Below are positions 1-56,659 of a stretch of DNA of 58,747 nt, piece by piece; within the stretch, counting starts at the first letter, position 1; each line of letters begins with the position of its first letter. The notes beneath the pieces are model-generated. The model saw only the letters and a list, made by a program, of their open reading frames with translations, ran no database searches and was not told the DNA's origin. The position numbers and the translations under genes were made by a program. Origin of the DNA: a virus (lineage: Duplodnaviria; Caudoviricetes); the IMG/VR virus record IMGVR_UViG_3300033148_009015, positions 1 to 58,747 of that record. One strand, written 5' to 3'.

Positions 1-114
1 CTCAATATTGTGGACCGCCTCCTGAATGTCTATCAGGCTGCGCCCTCGAAACCCGCACACAATTCGCTCTCTGTCATCTCGGTCAACATACATTTTTCGC
101 TCCTTTCCGTTTTG
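1..114. repeat. Terminal direct repeat (circular assembly overlap), copy 1
   Basis: 1-114 is identical to 58634-58747. ORF 83..469 ends over the start of ORF 58427..58726 when the ends are joined. Confidence 0.95.
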
Positions 115-469
115 TGTCGAGTTCCACGAGCTTCGCGTAGAAGGCCACTGGCTTTTCATCCCAGGCATATTCCGGGCGACAGCACTGGAAGTGCGCATCG
201 ACCAGTCGTCCGGGGCAGTATTCACACGCACAACCATCAACAGCAGGACCCTCCTGGAGGTCGTAGGCACAGAAGAAACAGCTGTCTTCGCCAATCTCGA
301 CCCCGTGGTCTTTCACCCATTGAGCCTTGAGCCGCGCCACCACAACCGCTGGGTGGGCTGTTTTGCCTTGCCTCTCGTACCGCTGATACTGTTCGGAGAC
401 CCACTTCCATTGCTCCAGGCACAGCCGCCAAACCTCGTCAAGCGTCCATATCTTCATCTTCTCGCTCAT
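83..469 (-). CDS. Hypothetical protein with Cys cluster (CFFC...CACEYCP)
   Basis: 128 aa ORF, RBS AAAGGAG upstream, coupled to neighbours. Confidence 0.75.
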   Translation of the reverse strand: MSEKMKIWTLDEVWRLCLEQWKWVSEQYQRYERQGKTAHPAVVVARLKAQWVKDHGVEIGEDSCFFCAYDLQEGPAVDGCACEYCPGRLVDAHFQCCRPEYAWDEKPVAFYAKLVELDTKRKGAKNVC

Positions 470-614
470 TTTTCGCTCCTTTCCGCCGAAAATGCTCGCG
501 CAAAATATCGCTCGCTTCGTCGGCCAGGCGCACCGCCTCGGCCTCGACCGCCGCCCATTCCGTTGAGGCGACCGCCGCTATCAACGTCACCTTGCGACGC
601 TCATCAACCGTCAC
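438..614 (-). CDS. Small hypothetical protein
   Basis: 3' part of ORF 438..887 from GTG at 614 (VTVDERRKVTLIAAVASTEW...); fills the gap between two genes. Confidence 0.45.
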   Translation of the reverse strand: MTVDERRKVTLIAAVASTEWAAVEAEAVRLADEASDILREHFRRKGAKNEREDEDMDA

Positions 615-915
615 CGTCTTGAGCGCCTTGGCCCTGTGCCTGTACATAGAACCCATAACACTCGCTCGATTCCAGCCGCCCGGTCCCGCCAGATAACTGC
701 TCCGGCGTCCGCGTGTCGCAAAACCAACCAGACCACTCGACCGACTCGACCATACACGACGGGCAACCCTCGTGCCCGCAATACAGGCAACGAGGCCGGC
801 AGGCCACGTGCATCCGTGACGCAGCACAACCGACCTCGTCGCACTCCACGCTCCGCTCGCCTGCCTCAATCGGCTCGCGGCATACACTACATATCACCAC
901 AACCTGCTGCTCCAT
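604..915 (-). CDS. Cys-rich zinc-finger-like protein
   Basis: MEQQVVVICSVC...CLYC...CPSC...WFC; ATG at 915 directly after the pentamer repeat tract. Confidence 0.6.
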   Translation of the reverse strand: MEQQVVVICSVCREPIEAGERSVECDEVGCAASRMHVACRPRCLYCGHEGCPSCMVESVEWSGWFCDTRTPEQLSGGTGRLESSECYGFYVQAQGQGAQDGDG

Positions 916-1187
916 CGCCTTGCCTGCCCTTACGTTGCCTATGCAATGCAATCCTTGGCTCTACTCCACTTTGCCGGAGCTATACTGAGCTCTGCAACGC
1001 TGTGGCACTGCCCCGCCCCGCGTCGCGCCGCCTTGCGCTGCCCGTGCCACGCAACACCCTGCTTTGCACCGCTCCACTTTGCCTGGCCGTTGCGGTTGCA
1101 GTGCAACGAAGCGCCGCTGCAACACATTGCCAACCGACGCATCGCCCAGGCTTTACGTTGCCGTGCGCAACTACGCCATTCCATAGC
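916..1187 (-). ncRNA. Period-5 NGY-NN repeat tract; putative guide RNA(s) for the adjacent RAMP/Cas7-like protein (VIPR-like)
   Basis: Minus-strand runs such as GGCCA GGCAA AGTGG AGCGG TGCAA AGCAG GGTGT TGCGT GGCAC (1088-1044) and GGCAA AGTGG AGTAG AGCCA AGGAT TGCAT TGCAT (975-941). Starts right after the stop codon of the RAMP gene. Confidence 0.75.
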
Positions 1188-1904
1188 CTATGCTCTCGCT
1201 TTTCTCCGCCGAGCCTTCGGCTTGACCGCCTTCGGCGCCTTGGCCGCCGAGTCCCACCACTCGAACCGCCCGAACGAGGCGTTCCGCCATTGGCCCAGAC
1301 CACGCACCGCACCATAATTCAGCCACTCGCGGACAAAATCCCACAAGTCGGGCCGAAACACCTCTATCTCGACCGCGATTCGCGTGCCAGCTGGAGCCTG
1401 CTCAGACCGACTCAACGCAACCCGCTCGCCCTGCCGCGTCTCGCAACGTATCGGACGCTCGCACCACTCGATTACGCCCTTGGCCGGCAGCTCCAACAAA
1501 ATCCGACGAGGATAAACAAACACCAGACTGTCTATCGTCCGCCGGTACAGATACCGCGTCAGCCGTGCCGCCTTGTAACGCGACGCCTGCTCCGTGTCCG
1601 CCGCGTCCAAGGCAGTCCGGCAAACCTCCTTGAAAAACCCCTTCACCTGATAGTCCCAGATGAACGGCTGCTTTTTCGCCGTCCGAGGAAAAATCGTGCT
1701 GGCCTTGCGCAACTCATCATCCAAATCGCCCGAAACGCTGTGCTCGAGCGCGGCTTCCTCATCTGCCGCCCTGCTCAAAATGAACTCCCTGGCAACGTTC
1801 GGGTCCCCGGCCAGCGTCGCAAGCAGCGGCTCGGTAAACTCGATTCCAACACTGTATCGCTCTGGCCGCCAGCCGGCCAACCTCTCCTTCGCTTTTGTCG
1901 CCAT
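1188..1904 (-). CDS. Stand-alone RAMP/Cas7-like protein (Vipr-like), 238 aa
   Basis: N-terminal strand YSVGIEFTEPLLA; IWDYQVKGFFKE helix motif; RSEQAPAGTRIAVEI; C-terminal Gly-rich loop GAVRGLGQWRNASFGRF typical of RAMPs; RBS AAAGGAG before ATG 1904. Confidence 0.8.
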   Translation of the reverse strand: MATKAKERLAGWRPERYSVGIEFTEPLLATLAGDPNVAREFILSRAADEEAALEHSVSGDLDDELRKASTIFPRTAKKQPFIWDYQVKGFFKEVCRTALDAADTEQASRYKAARLTRYLYRRTIDSLVFVYPRRILLELPAKGVIEWCERPIRCETRQGERVALSRSEQAPAGTRIAVEIEVFRPDLWDFVREWLNYGAVRGLGQWRNASFGRFEWWDSAAKAPKAVKPKARRRKARA

Positions 1905-1933
1905 CGTGTCGCTCTCCTTTCTCGTCTCAATCA

Positions 1934-2056
1934 ATAATACGGGGCGCCGACGCCTGTCGCATCGAGGATTGAAGGTAACAGCATCATCAAATATCACACG
2001 CCGGCGCCCCACGTCGCTACTGTAGCTGGTTAGTCGCGGCATCACCTCCTTTCGTT
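1934..2056 (-). repeat. Conserved ~125-bp structured leader element, copy 1
   Basis: Near-identical to 3727-3853 except for a central variable stretch; stem GGGGCGCCGGCG...CGTCGGCGCCCC. Confidence 0.85.
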
Positions 2057-2233
2057 ATCTGTCCCTGCTCGACGCGCAGCATAGGCGAACGCCGCCAACG
2101 CCTTGCGCCGACTGTTGCCTTGATACACTATCTTGCGAACAAGATTCGCCGGCAACCGCGCCGGCCCAGAACGCTCGATACAACGAACCTCCACGACATA
2201 CTTTTCCCTTTTCGTCAGCGCGTCAACGTCCAT
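2042..2233 (-). CDS. Hypothetical protein
   Basis: MDVDALTKREKYVVEVRC...; ATG overlaps the stop of the upstream gene. Confidence 0.6.
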   Translation of the reverse strand: MDVDALTKREKYVVEVRCIERSGPARLPANLVRKIVYQGNSRRKALAAFAYAARRAGTDNERR

Positions 2234-2679
2234 CAGCCAGCCTCCGCTAACGCCGCATCGAATGACGCCGCCGGACCCTCGTAAAGGATTCGACTCGGCT
2301 CCAGCTGGCATACCCGTAACGCCACAGCCTGTGGACCGCAATCCTTGCCGCCAGGAATCACGTCGTATACATACTCGGCGCAAACCTCAGCCGCCGAAAC
2401 CCCTGTCGGCATAAGATAAATCTCCTCCGGTAACCGAGAAGCAAACTCCTTCACAACGTGCGCGGCCAAAGAATCCGCACCATTGAAGACCGCTACGCCC
2501 TCCTTGGCGTAGCGGCGCATCGCGTCATCCGACGGCCAGCCGTTCACGAGCAGACAATCAGTCAAATACCGCGCTAACTCGACGCCGTGCCCGCTCGGAT
2601 AACCGTCGTAATGACGGTACATCCTCGCTATCAGGCGCGAGTCGTAATCAAATAACCGGGTTACACATCGTGTCGCCAT
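2233..2679 (-). CDS. Conserved phage protein (MxTR...YxHxDGYP family)
   Basis: MATRCVTRL...MYRHYDGYPSGHG motif; RBS GAAAGGAG. Confidence 0.75.
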   Translation of the reverse strand: MATRCVTRLFDYDSRLIARMYRHYDGYPSGHGVELARYLTDCLLVNGWPSDDAMRRYAKEGVAVFNGADSLAAHVVKEFASRLPEEIYLMPTGVSAAEVCAEYVYDVIPGGKDCGPQAVALRVCQLEPSRILYEGPAASFDAALAEAG

Positions 2680-3382
2680 TGTCGTTCTCCTTTCTCTGCT
2701 GTTCTGCCTGTACTTGGTCTTCCGCCGACTCGCCAGCAACGTCGCCGCCGAGACGGTCACTGTCGCTCTGGTCGCTACACTCACGCCACGCAACGTCGTA
2801 GTCCACCACGCGCGGCATCACCATCGCAAAAAAACCCGCACCACCATCAAAAACAACCGGACCTGCGCCCGGGTCGGCCTGCACTTTGACCGTCCAACGC
2901 GACACAGTCTCGCTCGCGAATAAATCAGCCAGATACGCTGGCTCGACAAATATCCCCCGACGCGCTAACGCCATCGACGCAACAGCAGCATCGCCTATCT
3001 GCGCCATCGCCGCATAGCTCGTCGGAACAATCTCGTGCCAATTCGGGAAGATGTTCGCGTCCCCCTCGTGGCATAACTCCACCACGATATAATTCGTCGT
3101 CCGCCGCGCAATCCGGTAGAATCCCTCAGGAAGCTGCAAGGCATCGCCGCGATATGCGTGCAGCCGCCTGCCGTCCGTCGCCGCTATCCATCCGTCGGCT
3201 ACACGTAACTTGTCCAGAGAATACCGCATCTTGACTTCGCCACGACGGTCCGCCGCACCAGATACCCACCAAGCCACGCGGAAGGCGCCCTCGGAGCCGC
3301 AGCGGCTGAAGGAATACTTGCTGGGCGCGGCGCTCGATGCGCCCGCGCCCGAACTCGTCGTCTGTCTATGTGTTGTACTCAT
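2648..3382 (-). CDS. DNA polymerase III beta-clamp-like domain protein
   Basis: RYSLDKLRV...AATDGRRLH...FPNW..IVP...AMVMP resembles beta-clamp domains 2-3; RBS GAGGAG. Confidence 0.6.
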   Translation of the reverse strand: MSTTHRQTTSSGAGASSAAPSKYSFSRCGSEGAFRVAWWVSGAADRRGEVKMRYSLDKLRVADGWIAATDGRRLHAYRGDALQLPEGFYRIARRTTNYIVVELCHEGDANIFPNWHEIVPTSYAAMAQIGDAAVASMALARRGIFVEPAYLADLFASETVSRWTVKVQADPGAGPVVFDGGAGFFAMVMPRVVDYDVAWRECSDQSDSDRLGGDVAGESAEDQVQAEQQRKENDNGDTMCNPVI

Positions 3383-3393
3383 CTCATTGCTCC

Positions 3394-3699
3394 TCAGTAT
3401 TCGTACCCATCGTCGTCCAACGCACTCCACTCGCTGCCCCACGTCGCAGCACGGTCCGCACACTGCGGCGCAGCAAACTTGTACCACATCTTCCCTCTCC
3501 GGTCGATGCGGCACATCGCTATCGCGCCCGGACGCACGTGGTCGCGCCCGCAAATGCACCAGGGCACACTTCGGCCCAGCGCCTCTAACACGTCGTCATC
3601 TTGCCCGTCGAGCTCGCAGTCAATCTCCGTTGCAACCTCGCGATAGTACGCCGCTGCCTGCTCCGGGTCCGTCATCGTGTAATTCGCTTTGTCCGCCAT
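3394..3699 (-). CDS. Hypothetical protein
   Basis: MADKANYTMTDPEQ...; RBS GAAAGGAG. Confidence 0.7.
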   Translation of the reverse strand: MADKANYTMTDPEQAAAYYREVATEIDCELDGQDDDVLEALGRSVPWCICGRDHVRPGAIAMCRIDRRGKMWYKFAAPQCADRAATWGSEWSALDDDGYEY

Positions 3700-3726
3700 T
3701 GTCGTTCTCCTTTCCTGTTTCATTGG

Positions 3727-3853
3727 ATAATACGGGGCGCCGACGCCTGTCGCATCGAGGGGTTGAAGGTGGCAGCTTGGCCAGCTTCTTCTCTACGCCG
3801 GCGCCCCACGTCACTACTGTAGTTGATTAGCCGTGGCATCACCTCCTTTCGTT
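3727..3853 (-). repeat. Conserved ~125-bp structured leader element, copy 2
   Basis: Near-identical to 1934-2056. Confidence 0.85.
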
Positions 3854-3887
3854 GCGCTACCGTTTACGTCTTCTGTGCAAATTGCGG

Positions 3888-4052
3888 TCACTGCCGCAAG
3901 CTCAGCCGCTCGCGCATCTGTATCTGGCGCCGCAGCCGCCGCCGGGCCTTCTCGTACTGGCTCTTGTACGGCTCGTCGAGCCGCTCGATGAGGTTGCGGA
4001 TTGTCACGTCCTTGGCCTTCAAGGCCGCCAATGTCGGTCTCCTATACGTCAT
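3888..4052 (-). CDS. Small basic hypothetical protein
   Basis: MTYRRPTLAALKAKD... with GAGG upstream. Confidence 0.5.
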   Translation of the reverse strand: MTYRRPTLAALKAKDVTIRNLIERLDEPYKSQYEKARRRLRRQIQMRERLSLRQ

Positions 4053-4169
4053 CGTCCTGTCCCTCGCATTGAGAGTGCCTGCATGGCGAGACAAGCCCGG
4101 CCGGGCGCCAACGCAGCGCCCGACCGAACCCAGGAAAGGAATGGGGAGGATGATGCTGTCTCGTGCCTG

Positions 4170-4385
4170 CTACTCATTTCGATTCGATATCTCGGCAATG
4201 GCACCGCGGCCCAAGCGGGTAGGGTATACTTCCCATGTTTGGCGGTCGTATTCTAATTCGCCGCGATTGCCGCATTCATAGCACTCATAGAGTGCGATAT
4301 TGGCTCCATTGAAGCCAATTTCAGTTTTGGCGTGGAACATCTCCGCCCCGCACTCGCATGTCACTACCAGTTCATTCAGGTCCAT
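4170..4385 (-). CDS. Zinc-ribbon protein
   Basis: CECG...YECYECG; RBS AAGGAG. Confidence 0.65.
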   Translation of the reverse strand: MDLNELVVTCECGAEMFHAKTEIGFNGANIALYECYECGNRGELEYDRQTWEVYPTRLGRGAIAEISNRNE

Positions 4386-4762
4386 TGCTTGACTCCTTGT
4401 CTGTCTCGCGGCCACCAGCACATGGCCGGACGGCCTGTCGGCCCGACGGCCTTCACGGCCCGCTCGCACCAGGCGAATTCGCCCTTGCAGCGCCCTGTAC
4501 AGCCCGGCGCGCCGCAGTGCTGCACCAGGCCCAGCCTGCGCAGCTCCGGCAGGCGCCGGGCGACCTCGTGGTATGTGTCGTTCGGTATCGCGCCCTCGGC
4601 CGCAGCGGCTATCTCAGCGCTTGTGCGGCCGGGCCGCCTGCGCACGGCGGCCAGAACGACGCCCAGATGACTGTTGCGCACGCGCGCGGCCGCCTCGTAG
4701 CTCGTCGCGGGGTCGCTTGCGTGCGCCCTCGGCAGGCTGTCGAATAGGGTCCTCGTTCGCAT
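4376..4762 (-). CDS. Winged-helix DNA-binding protein
   Basis: RAHASDPATSYEAA...GRTSAEIA...RRLPELRRLGLV, typical phage wHTH. Confidence 0.75.
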   Translation of the reverse strand: MRTRTLFDSLPRAHASDPATSYEAAARVRNSHLGVVLAAVRRRPGRTSAEIAAAAEGAIPNDTYHEVARRLPELRRLGLVQHCGAPGCTGRCKGEFAWCERAVKAVGPTGRPAMCWWPRDRQGVKQWT

Positions 4763-4763
4763 C

Positions 4764-5018
4764 TCAGTTCTCCGGTTCGCTGTCGTCGCGGATGACCGTG
4801 ACTATGAGCTTCCGCCGGCGGTCGTACACCAGGCGGAGCTCGTCCACGCGGAAAATCGATACGCGACGCGACGGCCGCTCGATGAACTCGGCGAGCCCGG
4901 CCTGTATCGCCCGGACGAGCTCGTCATGCCGCTGAGGCGTGAGCGTCTCGCCCACCCTCTGTCGGAAGCGGCGTCTCGCGTGCCGCCTGACTCTATCGAC
5001 CTTGCGCAGTCTCGGCAT
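4764..5018 (-). CDS. Small protein, possible RelE-like fold
   Basis: HARRRFRQR...LVYDRRRKLIVTV pattern; RBS AAGGAG. Confidence 0.55.
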   Translation of the reverse strand: MPRLRKVDRVRRHARRRFRQRVGETLTPQRHDELVRAIQAGLAEFIERPSRRVSIFRVDELRLVYDRRRKLIVTVIRDDSEPEN

Positions 5019-14345: not shown

Positions 14346-15206
14346 ATGGCAGTGGGACGCATCATTCGCAAGGATATATCGGAGAGCCGCAGGGTCGCCG
14401 CGCTTAAGACCGACAGCGCCCGCCTGCTGTACACTTGGCTCATCGCGCACGCGGACGTGAACGGCAACTTCAGTGCCGACCCGCACGTCGTAAACGGTCG
14501 CGTTCTCACGCGCCTCAGCAAGACGGCTGAGGAGGTGCAGGACTACCTGGATGACCTGGAGTCAACAGGCTTGATAATGCGCTACGAGGCCGACGGGGAC
14601 ATGTATTTGCACATCAGGAAGTTCGCGGAAAAGCAGCCCTGTCTCAACCCGAAGCGCGAGGCCAAACCGCGCATTCCTCTACCTGCAACAGACGAAGGTG
14701 AGACCAACTCCAGACCAACTCCAGACAAACTCCAGACCAACTCCAGACAAACTCCAGACAAACTCCAGACCAACTCCAGACCAACTCCAGACCAACTCCA
14801 GACAAACTCCAGACCTGCGCAGGCACAAATTAAAATTAAAAGTAAAAGTAAAATTAAAACTAAAGACCCCCCCCCATATACCCCCCCCCTACACCGCGAC
14901 AAGCGCCGGCATCTTGAGCACGTATTCCTGACTGACGATGAATACGACAAACTCTGTGCCCGCTTGGGCGAAACTGCCGCCCGCGATTATATCGAGCGGC
15001 TCAACGACTACATCGGCAGCCGTGGGTGCCGATACAAGTCCCACTATCACACGATTCTGACCTGGTGGCGAAACGACAACCCCAATGGCAATCAGCGAGG
15101 CACGATTTCAGGCGCTCAACGAGCGGCTTCGGCAGCGGCAAGCGGCGGCCGCCCGCGAATCAACCAGCAGGATTTCGGCGACCTGCCCTCCGTTGCGCGA
15201 GCATAG
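14346..15206 (+). CDS. Replication initiator protein (lambda O-like architecture)
   Basis: N-terminal wHTH (ARLLYTWLIAHAD..G), internal iteron-encoded repeat, C-terminal V.LTDDEYDKL...YKSHY.TIL.W domain; RBS GGAGG. Confidence 0.85.
   Translation: MAVGRIIRKDISESRRVAALKTDSARLLYTWLIAHADVNGNFSADPHVVNGRVLTRLSKTAEEVQDYLDDLESTGLIMRYEADGDMYLHIRKFAEKQPCLNPKREAKPRIPLPATDEGETNSRPTPDKLQTNSRQTPDKLQTNSRPTPDQLQTNSRPAQAQIKIKSKSKIKTKDPPPYTPPLHRDKRRHLEHVFLTDDEYDKLCARLGETAARDYIERLNDYIGSRGCRYKSHYHTILTWWRNDNPNGNQRGTISGAQRAASAAASGGRPRINQQDFGDLPSVARA
14701..14866 (+). repeat. Replication origin: ten 11-bp iterons plus AT-rich unwinding element
   Basis: AGAC(C/A)AACTCC x10 (14701-14810), then TAAAAN-type hexamer repeats to about 14866. 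Confidence 0.85.
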
Positions 15207-15882
15207 ATGCTCGGACTGTGGCTGTGTGCTGTCCGAGGAGCGAACGACGCCGGTGGTGCATGCCTACTGCAGACCCTGCCAGGCCCGGCGCGACCATCGT
15301 GCCGCAGTTGCCCGCCGGCGCCGGACGCGGGCCCAGCGAGTTGCCGCCCTGGACCAGCTGATTCCGCCGCTGTACGCCGGTGCCCGCCTGCGCCATTTTC
15401 GGCCCGAGTTCCGGCACGAGCTCGTCCGGCATTGGCGCCAGGGCATAGTGTTGTACGGCCCGACCGGCACCGGGAAGTCCTATGCCCTGTGCGCCCTGCT
15501 GCGGGCGCTGACCCTGGCTGGACACTGCTGCACACGCACCAGCTGGATTCGGATGTGCCTGGAGACGCGGGAGGCCTTCGTCCGCGACGCGACCGTTACG
15601 GAGCTGGCTGTGGTGCGGCGCTACAGCCAGGCGCCCGTGCTCTGTATCGAGGACCTCGGCAGCGACAGGCCCGTCGGCCACGAGGAGTCGGCGTTCGCGC
15701 TGCGGCTGTTCTACGCCGTGCTGGACCAGCGCCAGGAGCGGCTTCTCCCGACGCTGATAAGCACAAACAAGACCTTCGGCAACATCGCCAGGAGCTTCGA
15801 CGACCGCATCGCCAGCCGGCTGCGACTGTTCCGGTGGCTGGGCGTCGGCGGCCCCGACCGCCGCAAAGGGGGCCCGCAATGA
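15085..15882 (+). CDS. DnaC/IstB-like helicase loader ATPase
   Basis: CxxC...CxxC, GPTGTGKS, LCIEDLG, PTLISTN, RIASRL. Confidence 0.85.
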   Translation: MAISEARFQALNERLRQRQAAAARESTSRISATCPPLREHRCSDCGCVLSEERTTPVVHAYCRPCQARRDHRAAVARRRRTRAQRVAALDQLIPPLYAGARLRHFRPEFRHELVRHWRQGIVLYGPTGTGKSYALCALLRALTLAGHCCTRTSWIRMCLETREAFVRDATVTELAVVRRYSQAPVLCIEDLGSDRPVGHEESAFALRLFYAVLDQRQERLLPTLISTNKTFGNIARSFDDRIASRLRLFRWLGVGGPDRRKGGPQ

Positions 15883-28006: not shown

Positions 28007-28684
28007 ATGCCCCGGTGGGAACCGAAGCCGATTTGGGCCGGCCGCGACTGCTTCATCGTCGGCGGCGGGCCGTCTCTGCGGGGATTCGACTTCTCTCTGC
28101 TGCGCGCCGAGCGGGCGATAGGCTGCAACAACGCCTTCCGGCTCGGACCGGAGGTCTGCGACTACTGCGTGTTCGTGGACCGCAAGTTCATCATCGGCCC
28201 CGACGGCAAGCCCCGCAGCGGCTTCTACGACGGGCTGGCCGAGTTCGGCAATCCGGTCATAACGTCGGAGCCACGCCTGCGCGACCGGCCGGAGAGATGG
28301 CTCTACTGGTATCCGCGCAAGGCGCAGGGTCTGCACCGGGACGCGCTGGGCTACAACTACAATTGCGGCGCGACCACCATAAACGCCGCGCTGCTGTTGG
28401 GAGCGACCACGGTCTACCTGCTCGGCTTCGACATGCACCTAGGCGACAGGGGCGAGCCGAACTGGCATTCGCATCTTATCGACAGGCCGAGCCCGAACGT
28501 GTACTTCCGCATGCTGGCGGCGTTCGCACACGTCAAGCGCGACCTGGCGGAGAAGTTCCCCGGCTGCCGCGTCGTCAACGTCAACGACGATTCGGCGCTG
28601 AAGTGCTTCCCGACGGTCGGAACCGCGCAGTTCTGGGCCGAGCGGGCGCGCGGGAGAAAGGAGGCGGCCGCCTGTGGCAGTTAG
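28007..28684 (+). CDS. DUF115/Maf-like (sialyltransferase-like) Rossmann protein
   Basis: FIVGGGPSL, AIGCNNA, VYLLGFDM; paralogous to 45660..46259. Confidence 0.75.
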   Translation: MPRWEPKPIWAGRDCFIVGGGPSLRGFDFSLLRAERAIGCNNAFRLGPEVCDYCVFVDRKFIIGPDGKPRSGFYDGLAEFGNPVITSEPRLRDRPERWLYWYPRKAQGLHRDALGYNYNCGATTINAALLLGATTVYLLGFDMHLGDRGEPNWHSHLIDRPSPNVYFRMLAAFAHVKRDLAEKFPGCRVVNVNDDSALKCFPTVGTAQFWAERARGRKEAAACGS

Positions 28685-29078
28685 AACGACCGAGTCCGCC
28701 GTGCAGGGCATAATCGAGCACGACAGCGGCATATCGCTGGCCCCGTTTATCGAGGCGGCCAGTGCCGTAGTTACCAAGCACTGCACGGACACTGGCTTCA
28801 CCGCGACCGAGCTCGAGCTCATCGAGCGGTGGCTTGCGGCGCACTTCTACGCCGTGCGCGACCCGCGGAGCGTCTCGGAAAAGGCCGGCAGCGTGAGCGA
28901 GACCAGGCAGAACAAGGTGGACCTCGGCTTCGACGTGACGCACTACGGGCAGATGGCGATGCGCCTGGACTGGTCCGGCGCGCTGGCGTCGCTGAACCAG
29001 CAGGCCAAGCAGGGCGGCCGCGTGGCCGTCTCGCTCGACTGGATGGGCACCAAATACGAGGACATGGACGACGATTAG
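28674..29078 (+). CDS. Head-tail adaptor (DUF4054-like)
   Basis: ERWLAAHF...SEKAGSVS...THYGQ. Confidence 0.8.
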   Translation: MAVRTTESAVQGIIEHDSGISLAPFIEAASAVVTKHCTDTGFTATELELIERWLAAHFYAVRDPRSVSEKAGSVSETRQNKVDLGFDVTHYGQMAMRLDWSGALASLNQQAKQGGRVAVSLDWMGTKYEDMDDD

Positions 29079-56200: not shown

Positions 56201-56659
56201 TTACCGGTCATCGAGGTTTGCCCCCGGACAAATAGCGATTATCTGTCTATCTGTGGCAACTAACTTGTCTTTGTCGATAATAATACGGCCCCAAACCTTT
56301 ACCTTCGTAAGCACCACATCACAGGCGCTCGGCCTGTATTTGCGAGCATCCTCAGGACTCAAACTCGCGTGCAAACCATATTCGCACAGAGCTATCTCGT
56401 CCTCGTGCAAATGCTCGCCTATGGCGGTTACCCTCTCAGTGCGCAACAACAATTGGCCGGCTGCATTACGCCGAACATAATGATATGCAGTCCACGCATC
56501 CTGCCGGCCAAGTATGATGTATTCTTGGCCATAGCCATAGCCATAGCCATAGCCATAGCCGTCGCCATAGCCGTCGCCAGAGCCAGAGCCATCACCAGAG
56601 CCATAGCCATAGCCAGAGCCAGAGCCGTCGCTATTTAGTCCCACGGTTGTTCTCGCCAT
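56201..56659 (-). CDS. G-x repeat protein with CxxGLHAS domain
   Basis: GSGSGYGYGSGDG...GYGYG tract, then LCEYGLHAS...DKLVA. Confidence 0.7.
   Translation of the reverse strand: MARTTVGLNSDGSGSGYGYGSGDGSGSGDGYGDGYGYGYGYGYGQEYIILGRQDAWTAYHYVRRNAAGQLLLRTERVTAIGEHLHEDEIALCEYGLHASLSPEDARKYRPSACDVVLTKVKVWGRIIIDKDKLVATDRQIIAICPGANLDDR

Follow-up and report, generated by a model that had tools for sequence, protein, structure and literature searches.

A probable VIPR system with a staggered array of short G-Y-N-N-N guides in a siphovirus-like phage genome

Results

The vipr locus and its phage genome

The window (the whole stretch of DNA analysed, 58,747 bases) is an entire virus record of 58.7 kb with a G+C content of 64%. 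Comparison with PHROGs identified key phage genes (large terminase, portal, protease, structural protein, tape measure and tail protein J), and further phage genes encode RecT, an SbcC-like protein, an HNH endonuclease, a DnaC-like loader and ParB/methyltransferase proteins. The locus under study comprises a minus-strand gene, vipr, and a candidate array of vrRNA guides on the same strand (Table 1). The initial annotation had described a 238-aa minus-strand gene with RAMP hallmarks, and this ORF was confirmed. Its ATG is preceded by AGGAG, 8-9 nt upstream, and was favoured over a longer ORF opening with GTG at 2045 because the homologues align from approximately residue 19.

Table 1 Features of the vipr locus. 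Coordinates are positions in the window; parts of the Vipr protein are given as residues.
Feature	Position	Strand	Description
vipr	1188..1904	-	238-aa stand-alone RAMP (Cas7-like); ATG at 1904, TAG at 1190-1188
Vipr beta1	residues 15-23
Vipr helix-1	residues 84-101
Vipr thumb hairpin	residues 146-170
Vipr G-loop	residues 202-213
Lys/Arg-rich C-terminal tail	1188-1247 (residues 220-238)	-
Candidate vrRNA array	913..1187	-	seven blocks with a total of about 49 clear G-Y-N-N-N units, no tail; extends from the vipr stop codon as far as the start codon (ATG) of the following ORF
Block B1	1146..1181	-	7 units + 1 nt
Block B2	1119..1145	-	5 units + 2-3 nt remainder; the single boundary without a +1 shift
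Block B3	1042..1118	-	3 units, degenerate 1102-1088, 9 clean units (1087-1043), + 1 nt
Block B4	1001..1041	-	8 units + 1 nt
Block B5	975..1000	-	5 units + 1 nt
Block B6	939..974	-	7 units + 1 nt
Block B7	913..938	-	5 units + 1 nt

The neighbours of vipr had no match in Pfam, PHROGs, NCBIfam or PADLOC and no named family in Atlas, and none of them recurs among 80 related loci (see below); consequently, no vap partner can be named. The ORF that starts at the last unit of the array (604-915) encodes a 103-aa Cys-rich protein without a family match, for which Atlas gave a sub-threshold lead only, to a prokaryotic RING-like family (score 0.83). An element of about 160 nt is present twice (1900-2060 and 3695-3853; 82% identity overall, 89-92% in the cores), one immediately upstream of vipr and the other immediately upstream of ORF 3394-3723, both genes being on the minus strand. 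This element includes a 13-bp G+C stem, its fold energy is ordinary (z -0.46), its sole Rfam match was far below threshold, and it may serve both genes as a promoter or leader.

The absence of a CRISPR array and of other cas genes reported in the initial annotation was borne out: Tandem Repeats Finder returned no CRISPR-like array in the whole genome, and no Cas family was found among 37 ORFs compared with PHROGs or among 9 and 44 ORFs compared with Pfam. The same PHROGs and Pfam scans gave no candidate for a nuclease or Cas10-like partner. Two other repeated regions were observed. At 14701-14864, an 11-nt unit repeated 10.5 times (94% matches) is followed by an A+T-rich hexamer run, just upstream of the DnaC-like helicase-loader gene (15085-15882); these repeats look like replication-origin iterons. 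At 56528-56626, a hexamer repeated 16.5 times lies inside ORF 56201-56659 (Pfam DUF7666), where it gives a dipeptide repeat in the protein.

The window protein is predicted to have a RAMP/Cas7 fold

Sequence searches placed the window protein in a large family. A word-indexed search returned 207 relatives (best, 56% identity), and an exhaustive HMMER search gave 1411 cluster representatives at E<=1e-3, including 126 at E<=1e-30. The six relatives with a source name among the matches listed were called 'hypothetical protein' or had no real name. The window protein had no match in PHROGs, NCBIfam or PADLOC, and its sole Pfam match, DUF4743 (E 0.11), was discarded.

The structural comparison was more informative. 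The AlphaFold2 model of the window protein (43 sequences; pLDDT 86.8, pTM 0.78) gave 123 Foldseek matches in the PDB at E<=0.001; all 41 rows examined (ranks 1-50) were entries of CRISPR-Cas effector complexes, mostly of types III and VII, the best match among them being a type VII Cas7 (E 4.6e-7). Weak matches through the Gly-rich loop were also obtained when the profile of the family was compared with PDB sequences (type VII Cas7, E 0.0022; Csm4, E 0.028), and the top match in BFVD was a family member designated 'Cas system-associated RAMP superfamily protein' in UniProt (E 1.1e-20, 39% identity). Structure prediction and Foldseek thus agree with the RAMP assignment of the initial annotation, and on this model the window protein is predicted to have a RAMP/Cas7 fold.

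The residues invariant in the family (alignment and AlphaFold2 model) are located in helix-1 (Y85, K88, G89, K92), the thumb (R150, P151, R153, G159, R161) and the G-loop (G202, Q205, W206, R207, G212); the stretch GLGQWRNASFGRF corresponds to residues 202-214 of the window protein. The list derived from alignment A1 was compiled in such a way that every residue in it occurs in the window protein. Helix-1, the thumb and the G-loop are the RNA-binding elements described for Vipr from cryo-EM (10.64898/2026.04.26.720927). The Lys/Arg-rich C-terminal tail is absent from most homologues, which stop near residue 218, and could provide extra, unspecific nucleic-acid binding.

A single period-5 region, composed of seven blocks, follows vipr

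The initial annotation had noticed a period-5 tract immediately after the vipr stop codon. The periodicity was confirmed (lags 5, 10 and 15 gave identities of 0.468, 0.405 and 0.37 in 916-1187, and the remaining lags from 1 to 20 gave 0.20-0.33); the tract is not in one register, being split into seven blocks (Table 1). A sliding scan of the 58,747 bases identified a sole strong period-5 region, at 843-1220 (excess 0.283, z 5.8), with two more segments that were merely marginal (0.152 and 0.151).

Phase-aware segmentation of the 275-nt array gave G-Y-N-N-N as the unit on the gene strand: position 1 was G in all 49 units and position 2 a pyrimidine in 45, and positions 3-5 were mixed (position 5: G 14, A 13, C 12, T 10). 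The unit proposed earlier, an NGY triplet plus a variable dinucleotide, is the same pattern in another register, except that the conserved part is reduced to G-Y and three letters vary. The first clear unit begins 7 nt past the vipr stop codon and the last one overlaps the ATG of the next ORF (915-913). At five of the six block boundaries the phase is shifted by +1, producing a 6-nt unit; this extra base between blocks might correspond to a processing site or to the end of a filament.

Other signals were scarce. Neither a conserved 3' tail nor the GCAAN-G end unit typical of relatives was found in the window array; RNA folding of the array compared with shuffled sequences showed nothing unusual (z -0.67); the Rfam scan of positions 1-5000 gave one sub-threshold match only, outside the array; and the promoter and terminator scan near the array yielded nothing usable.

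Related genes are paired with arrays of the same kind

In IMG/VR, 550 of 577 stretches matching the pattern encode a relative of the window protein, and the best 80 of these 550 were taken as loci for comparison. Of the 80 loci, 78 have a period-5 tract no more than 200 nt from the gene, compared to 41 of 338 control placements (pseudo-genes elsewhere in the same loci), and in the remaining two the tract is farther away; the expectation that homologues carry an adjacent period-5 tract was therefore well founded. Under the stricter G-Y model, 66 of the 80 loci have an array abutting the gene, on the upstream side alone in 18, on the downstream side alone in 40 and on both sides in 8, and the GY-periodic tract within 1.5 kb of the gene has a median length of 322 nt.

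The blocks of the relatives resemble those of the window. Among 595 unique blocks, position 1 was G in 95%, and position 2 was C in 72%, A in 17% and T in 9%. The +1 shift was found at 498 of 522 abutting blocks, the block lengths peaked at 26, 31 and 36, and GCAAN plus an extra G ended 317 of 523 blocks. Substitutions between near-identical guides numbered 15, 44, 105, 128 and 95 at positions 1 to 5, indicating that two letters are held and three vary equally.

Several features of individual relatives were also observed. The closest viral relative among the loci (L001, protein 53% identical) has about 60 blocks flanking the gene (2106-2904 and 3621-4134), nearly all of them ending in GCAAA-G, and its array is far larger and more regular than that of the window. 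One nearly invariant 36-nt guide block is common to 15 loci (L029, L043, L044, L047, L051-L053, L055, L057, L061, L063, L067, L070, L074 and L080), within otherwise variable arrays downstream of the gene. The first nine letters of this block also start the window array, directly after the stop codon (1179-1187); the shared opening may be due to chance or may be a conserved first element. The commonest neighbour cluster of the relatives, present in 54 loci, includes what we take by eye to be a helix-turn-helix repressor-like stretch.

These comparisons bear on whether the tract acts as RNA at all. If it acted as DNA, as a protein-binding or bent-DNA element or as a degenerate microsatellite that merely lies beside the gene, the lack of a special RNA fold would be expected, and it is also true that the sequencing runs holding the stretch are all DNA. 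Against this, of 32 loci, 11 carry the GY signal on the gene strand alone and none on the opposite strand alone (18 carry it on both, where GC reads the same on either strand, and 3 on neither); two letters are fixed and three are free, as the substitution counts illustrate; a RAMP gene accompanies the tract in nearly all the loci; and the likely origin iterons of this phage are elsewhere (14701-14815). We consider a DNA element to be barely credible.

Natural variation in the gene and the array

Four metagenome runs, all of DNA and with the labels sediment and hydrothermal vent, yielded contigs that span portions of 600-2300, at depths of 2-3.3 at which single differences may be errors. In vipr, 10 of the 13 differences between contigs were synonymous. 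Six differences were found in the array: one at position 1, two at position 2 (both ending in a pyrimidine), one at position 4 and two at position 5. One contig carries a 15-nt deletion in block B7, which corresponds to exactly three units. A low-depth contig of run X2 joins 963 to 2102, without vipr and B1-B5; the joint is weak (shorter side 28 nt, depth 2.1) and, if real, it might represent a variant retaining only the last guides.

The locus might alternatively be the decaying remnant of a VIPR system, whose short, partly degenerate array no longer guides anything. Consistent with decay, the array has only about 49 units compared to the approximately 60 blocks of L001, the closest among the relatives listed; the GCAAN-G end unit is missing, 1102-1088 is out of pattern and one boundary is irregular; the weak contig joint of run X2 skips 963-2102; and no target was found, either as self-matches or in the exact-pattern scans described below. 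However, all 49 units keep the G and 45 of them keep the Y, most of the differences in vipr are synonymous, the protein has all the invariant residues of alignment A1 (a consequence of how that list was built), and the median GY-periodic tract of the relatives (322 nt) is near the 275 nt of the window. Decay is accordingly an improbable explanation, somewhat less so than the DNA element considered above.

Searches for targets

The initial annotation had proposed searching phage and host sequences with a gapped NN-x pattern, and had suggested the repression of rival phages or of host genes; exact patterns gave chance-like matches only, and as no target was found this repression is unsupported. 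In the genome of the phage itself, eight block segments searched under six pairing rules all remained at the level of shuffled controls (lowest control fraction, 0.08). The lack of an excess of self-matches agrees with the absence of self-targeting stated for VIPR (10.64898/2026.04.26.720920). When the window was searched together with the 80 related loci, two-letter rules with a skip of 0-2 and three-letter rules with a skip of 0-1 gave no more matches than reversed-guide controls; an apparent excess under two rules with a 5-nt target step stemmed from unmasked arrays and was dismissed.

The collections were scanned for the window guides with exact patterns only, using the two longest of the seven blocks (B3b and B4), so the lack of a target carries little weight. 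B3b read as NNx had 0 viral, 6 genome and 12 metagenome matches, a chance-like result. These matches were rejected as targets: they are in unrelated genes encoding one same short peptide (presumably topoisomerase IV/gyrase A-like and altronate-dehydratase-like ORFs, by reading), and the skipped bases agree with position 5 in 2-5 of 8 cases. B4 read as NNx gave 15 viral matches in unrelated contigs, with an agreement of 0-4 of 7, and was likewise considered chance-like in this exact-pattern scan. The guide of one relative read as NNx matched at least 118 stretches; in the 80 examined, the agreement was 0-4 of 6 and never complete. The guides of two relatives used as contiguous three-letter patterns of 21 nt had 0 matches. 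A codon-aligned three-letter code received no support either, with 110 stop triplets compared to 119.9 +/- 7 when position 5 was shuffled, and 28 blocks with stops in both senses compared to 26 expected.

Discussion

A probable VIPR system in a siphovirus-like phage

VIPR systems, which silence DNA under RNA guidance, were first described in 2026 (10.64898/2026.04.26.720920 and three more preprints of that year), as a minimal RAMP protein together with vrRNAs made of pentamer repeats, with seven types (10.64898/2026.04.26.720920). The mention of such systems in the initial annotation proved right, and the text of this preprint also includes the two features most relevant here, YNNNG repeats and staggered arrays. 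The published set comprises 667 systems and 2,664 Vipr sequences, mainly carried by viruses and proviruses; a vrRNA locus has at least 4 pentamers in tandem, with GGY or a related consensus as the fixed part and hypervariable letters for the rest; the alternative repeats mentioned are NNNGG, YNNNG and NNNNG, the YNNNG arrays being grouped with VIPR; guides of 'staggered arrays' overlap by one base (legend of fig. S18); and an accessory vap gene is 'typically' present, stand-alone vipr genes being known too (10.64898/2026.04.26.720920). The G-Y-N-N-N unit corresponds to YNNNG read in a shifted register and the +1 blocks agree with the staggered description, so the window array fits the YNNNG repeat.

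The most probable explanation by a wide measure is that the locus is a VIPR system of a siphovirus-like phage, composed of Vipr and a downstream, same-strand array of short vrRNA guides. Within that reading, the guides have the 'YNNNG' form in a 'staggered' layout, with blocks of 5-9 units separated by one extra base. The locus is not a new kind of system, since VIPR has already been described in print.

By analogy with the clade of the SUSP1 system, the array would be transcribed with or after vipr, and one protomer would cover each unit, G and Y being accommodated in pockets of the thumb, helix-1 and the G-loop (W206, R207). The protomer-coated guide would then present the variable letters to double-stranded DNA, and the filament might bind dsDNA belonging to the host or to a rival mobile element, blocking transcription. 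One Vipr subunit per pentamer has been established by cryo-EM on another clade (10.64898/2026.04.26.720927), and the DNA binding reported in 10.64898/2026.04.26.720920 was also demonstrated for a clade other than that of the window.

A RAMP-RNA particle with another job, such as a decoy that absorbs CRISPR components of the host or a type III/VII-like RNA-targeting complex instead of a DNA silencer, should be weighed against this mechanism. Its attraction is that the nearest solved folds, Csm3 and type VII Cas7, act on RNA, that no DNA target was found in the searches described above, and that DNA binding is documented only for another clade. Nevertheless, the locus matches the DNA-binding VIPR clade in its unit length, in the fixed G-Y, in having its guides on the gene strand and in the W-R of the G-loop, the genome scans gave no nuclease or Cas10-like partner, and YNNNG arrays are grouped with VIPR (10.64898/2026.04.26.720920). 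We judge such a particle to be very unlikely, even more so than a decaying remnant.

The targeting rule and its significance

The targeting rule published for VIPR is two letters, skip one, that is, a 1-nt skip (10.64898/2026.04.26.720920). We tentatively suggest, as a minority possibility, that the G-Y-N-N-N branch does not follow this rule, and uses three letters per unit or another skip. The suggestion derives from the short guides (4-8 variable units), the three equally variable letters and the replacement of the residues that read G1. If true, the alternative rule would constitute a second noncontiguous code within VIPR. If only two letters of each unit were read, the short guides would specify 8-16 bases, hardly enough to define a unique site in a cell. 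Knowledge of the targeting rule of the G-Y-N-N-N arrays would give a wider design space for very small programmable DNA binders.

Independently of the rule, the locus extends the known carriers of VIPR to a phage of high G+C content that occurs in metagenomes from sediment and hydrothermal vents. The window and the 80 related loci document the anatomy of staggered G-Y-N-N-N arrays: two fixed and three equally variable letters, blocks of 5k+1 bases and, in most relatives, a GCAAN-G end.

Comparison with known systems

Cas7 of class 1 CRISPR-Cas systems binds crRNA with a 6-nt step, beside other Cas subunits and a CRISPR array. Compared to Cas7/Csm3 of types III and VII, the window locus has a step of 5 nt, and a CRISPR array and other Cas subunits were not found in the genome.

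For type II VIPR, known from Escherichia phage SUSP1 and a Pseudomonas fulva prophage (10.64898/2026.04.26.720920; on a satellite conflict, 10.64898/2026.10.15.759431), an experimentally validated Vipr is available, with which the window family was aligned. The SUSP1 locus (NC_028808.2, 28031-29061) contains GGT-NN repeats on the gene strand at both sides of the gene, and we assigned vipr to 28474-29061 (minus strand), whose C173, D177, W178 and R179 fit the numbering in 10.64898/2026.04.26.720927. A tblastn search of the phage collection did not reach SUSP1. In hhalign, the two families matched with a probability of 76.7% (E 2.1e-5, 185 collinear columns), below the usual 90%; the profile-profile score rose with the depth of the alignment, from 15% (23 columns) to 43.8% (E 2.4e-4, 180 columns) and 76.7% (185 columns). 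These profile alignments lean towards a distant but collinear similarity of the window family to the SUSP1 Vipr.

In SUSP1, H17 and D177 read G1 of GGY, and W178 and R179 hold G2 and Y3 (10.64898/2026.04.26.720927). The hhalign pairs are W178/R179 with W206/R207, and H17/D177 with T30/Q205, the N-terminal part being of low confidence. The presence of T30 and Q205 in place of H17 and D177 would fit the loss of the first G in the G-Y arrays. As described, type II VIPR (SUSP1/P. fulva) shares with the window a protein of about 200 aa that combines an RRM core, a thumb and a G-loop of the form G-x-G-x-W-R, guides adjacent to the gene and on its strand, a 5-nt step and a phage-borne location. SUSP1 is described as having GGY+NN units, with 9-16 of them in each guide, an invariable, structured 3' tail and a vap1 gene; in contrast, the window has G-Y+NNN units, 5-9 per block, head-to-tail blocks with one extra base, and neither tail nor vap was found. 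The window locus is therefore not type II, because the first G is not fixed, the blocks have 5-9 units and neither a tail nor a vap gene was found.

The non-canonical VIPR-like arrays found with a genomic language model (GAC/NN, CAC/NN, WGT/NN and TGH/NN; 10.64898/2026.10.21.760802) are, as described, similar to the window in their period of 5, in having a Vipr-like fold nearby and in fixed parts other than GGY; G-Y+NNN in blocks of 5k+1 is not among the motifs named for them in that preprint. The YNNNG/staggered VIPR, compared here by its text description, shares with the window a stand-alone minimal phage RAMP, pentamer repeats in which a fixed G and Y enclose variable letters, the one-base offset of the guides and the lack of a CRISPR array, the window copy differing in having no recognisable vap and no GCAAN-G end unit like that of its relatives.
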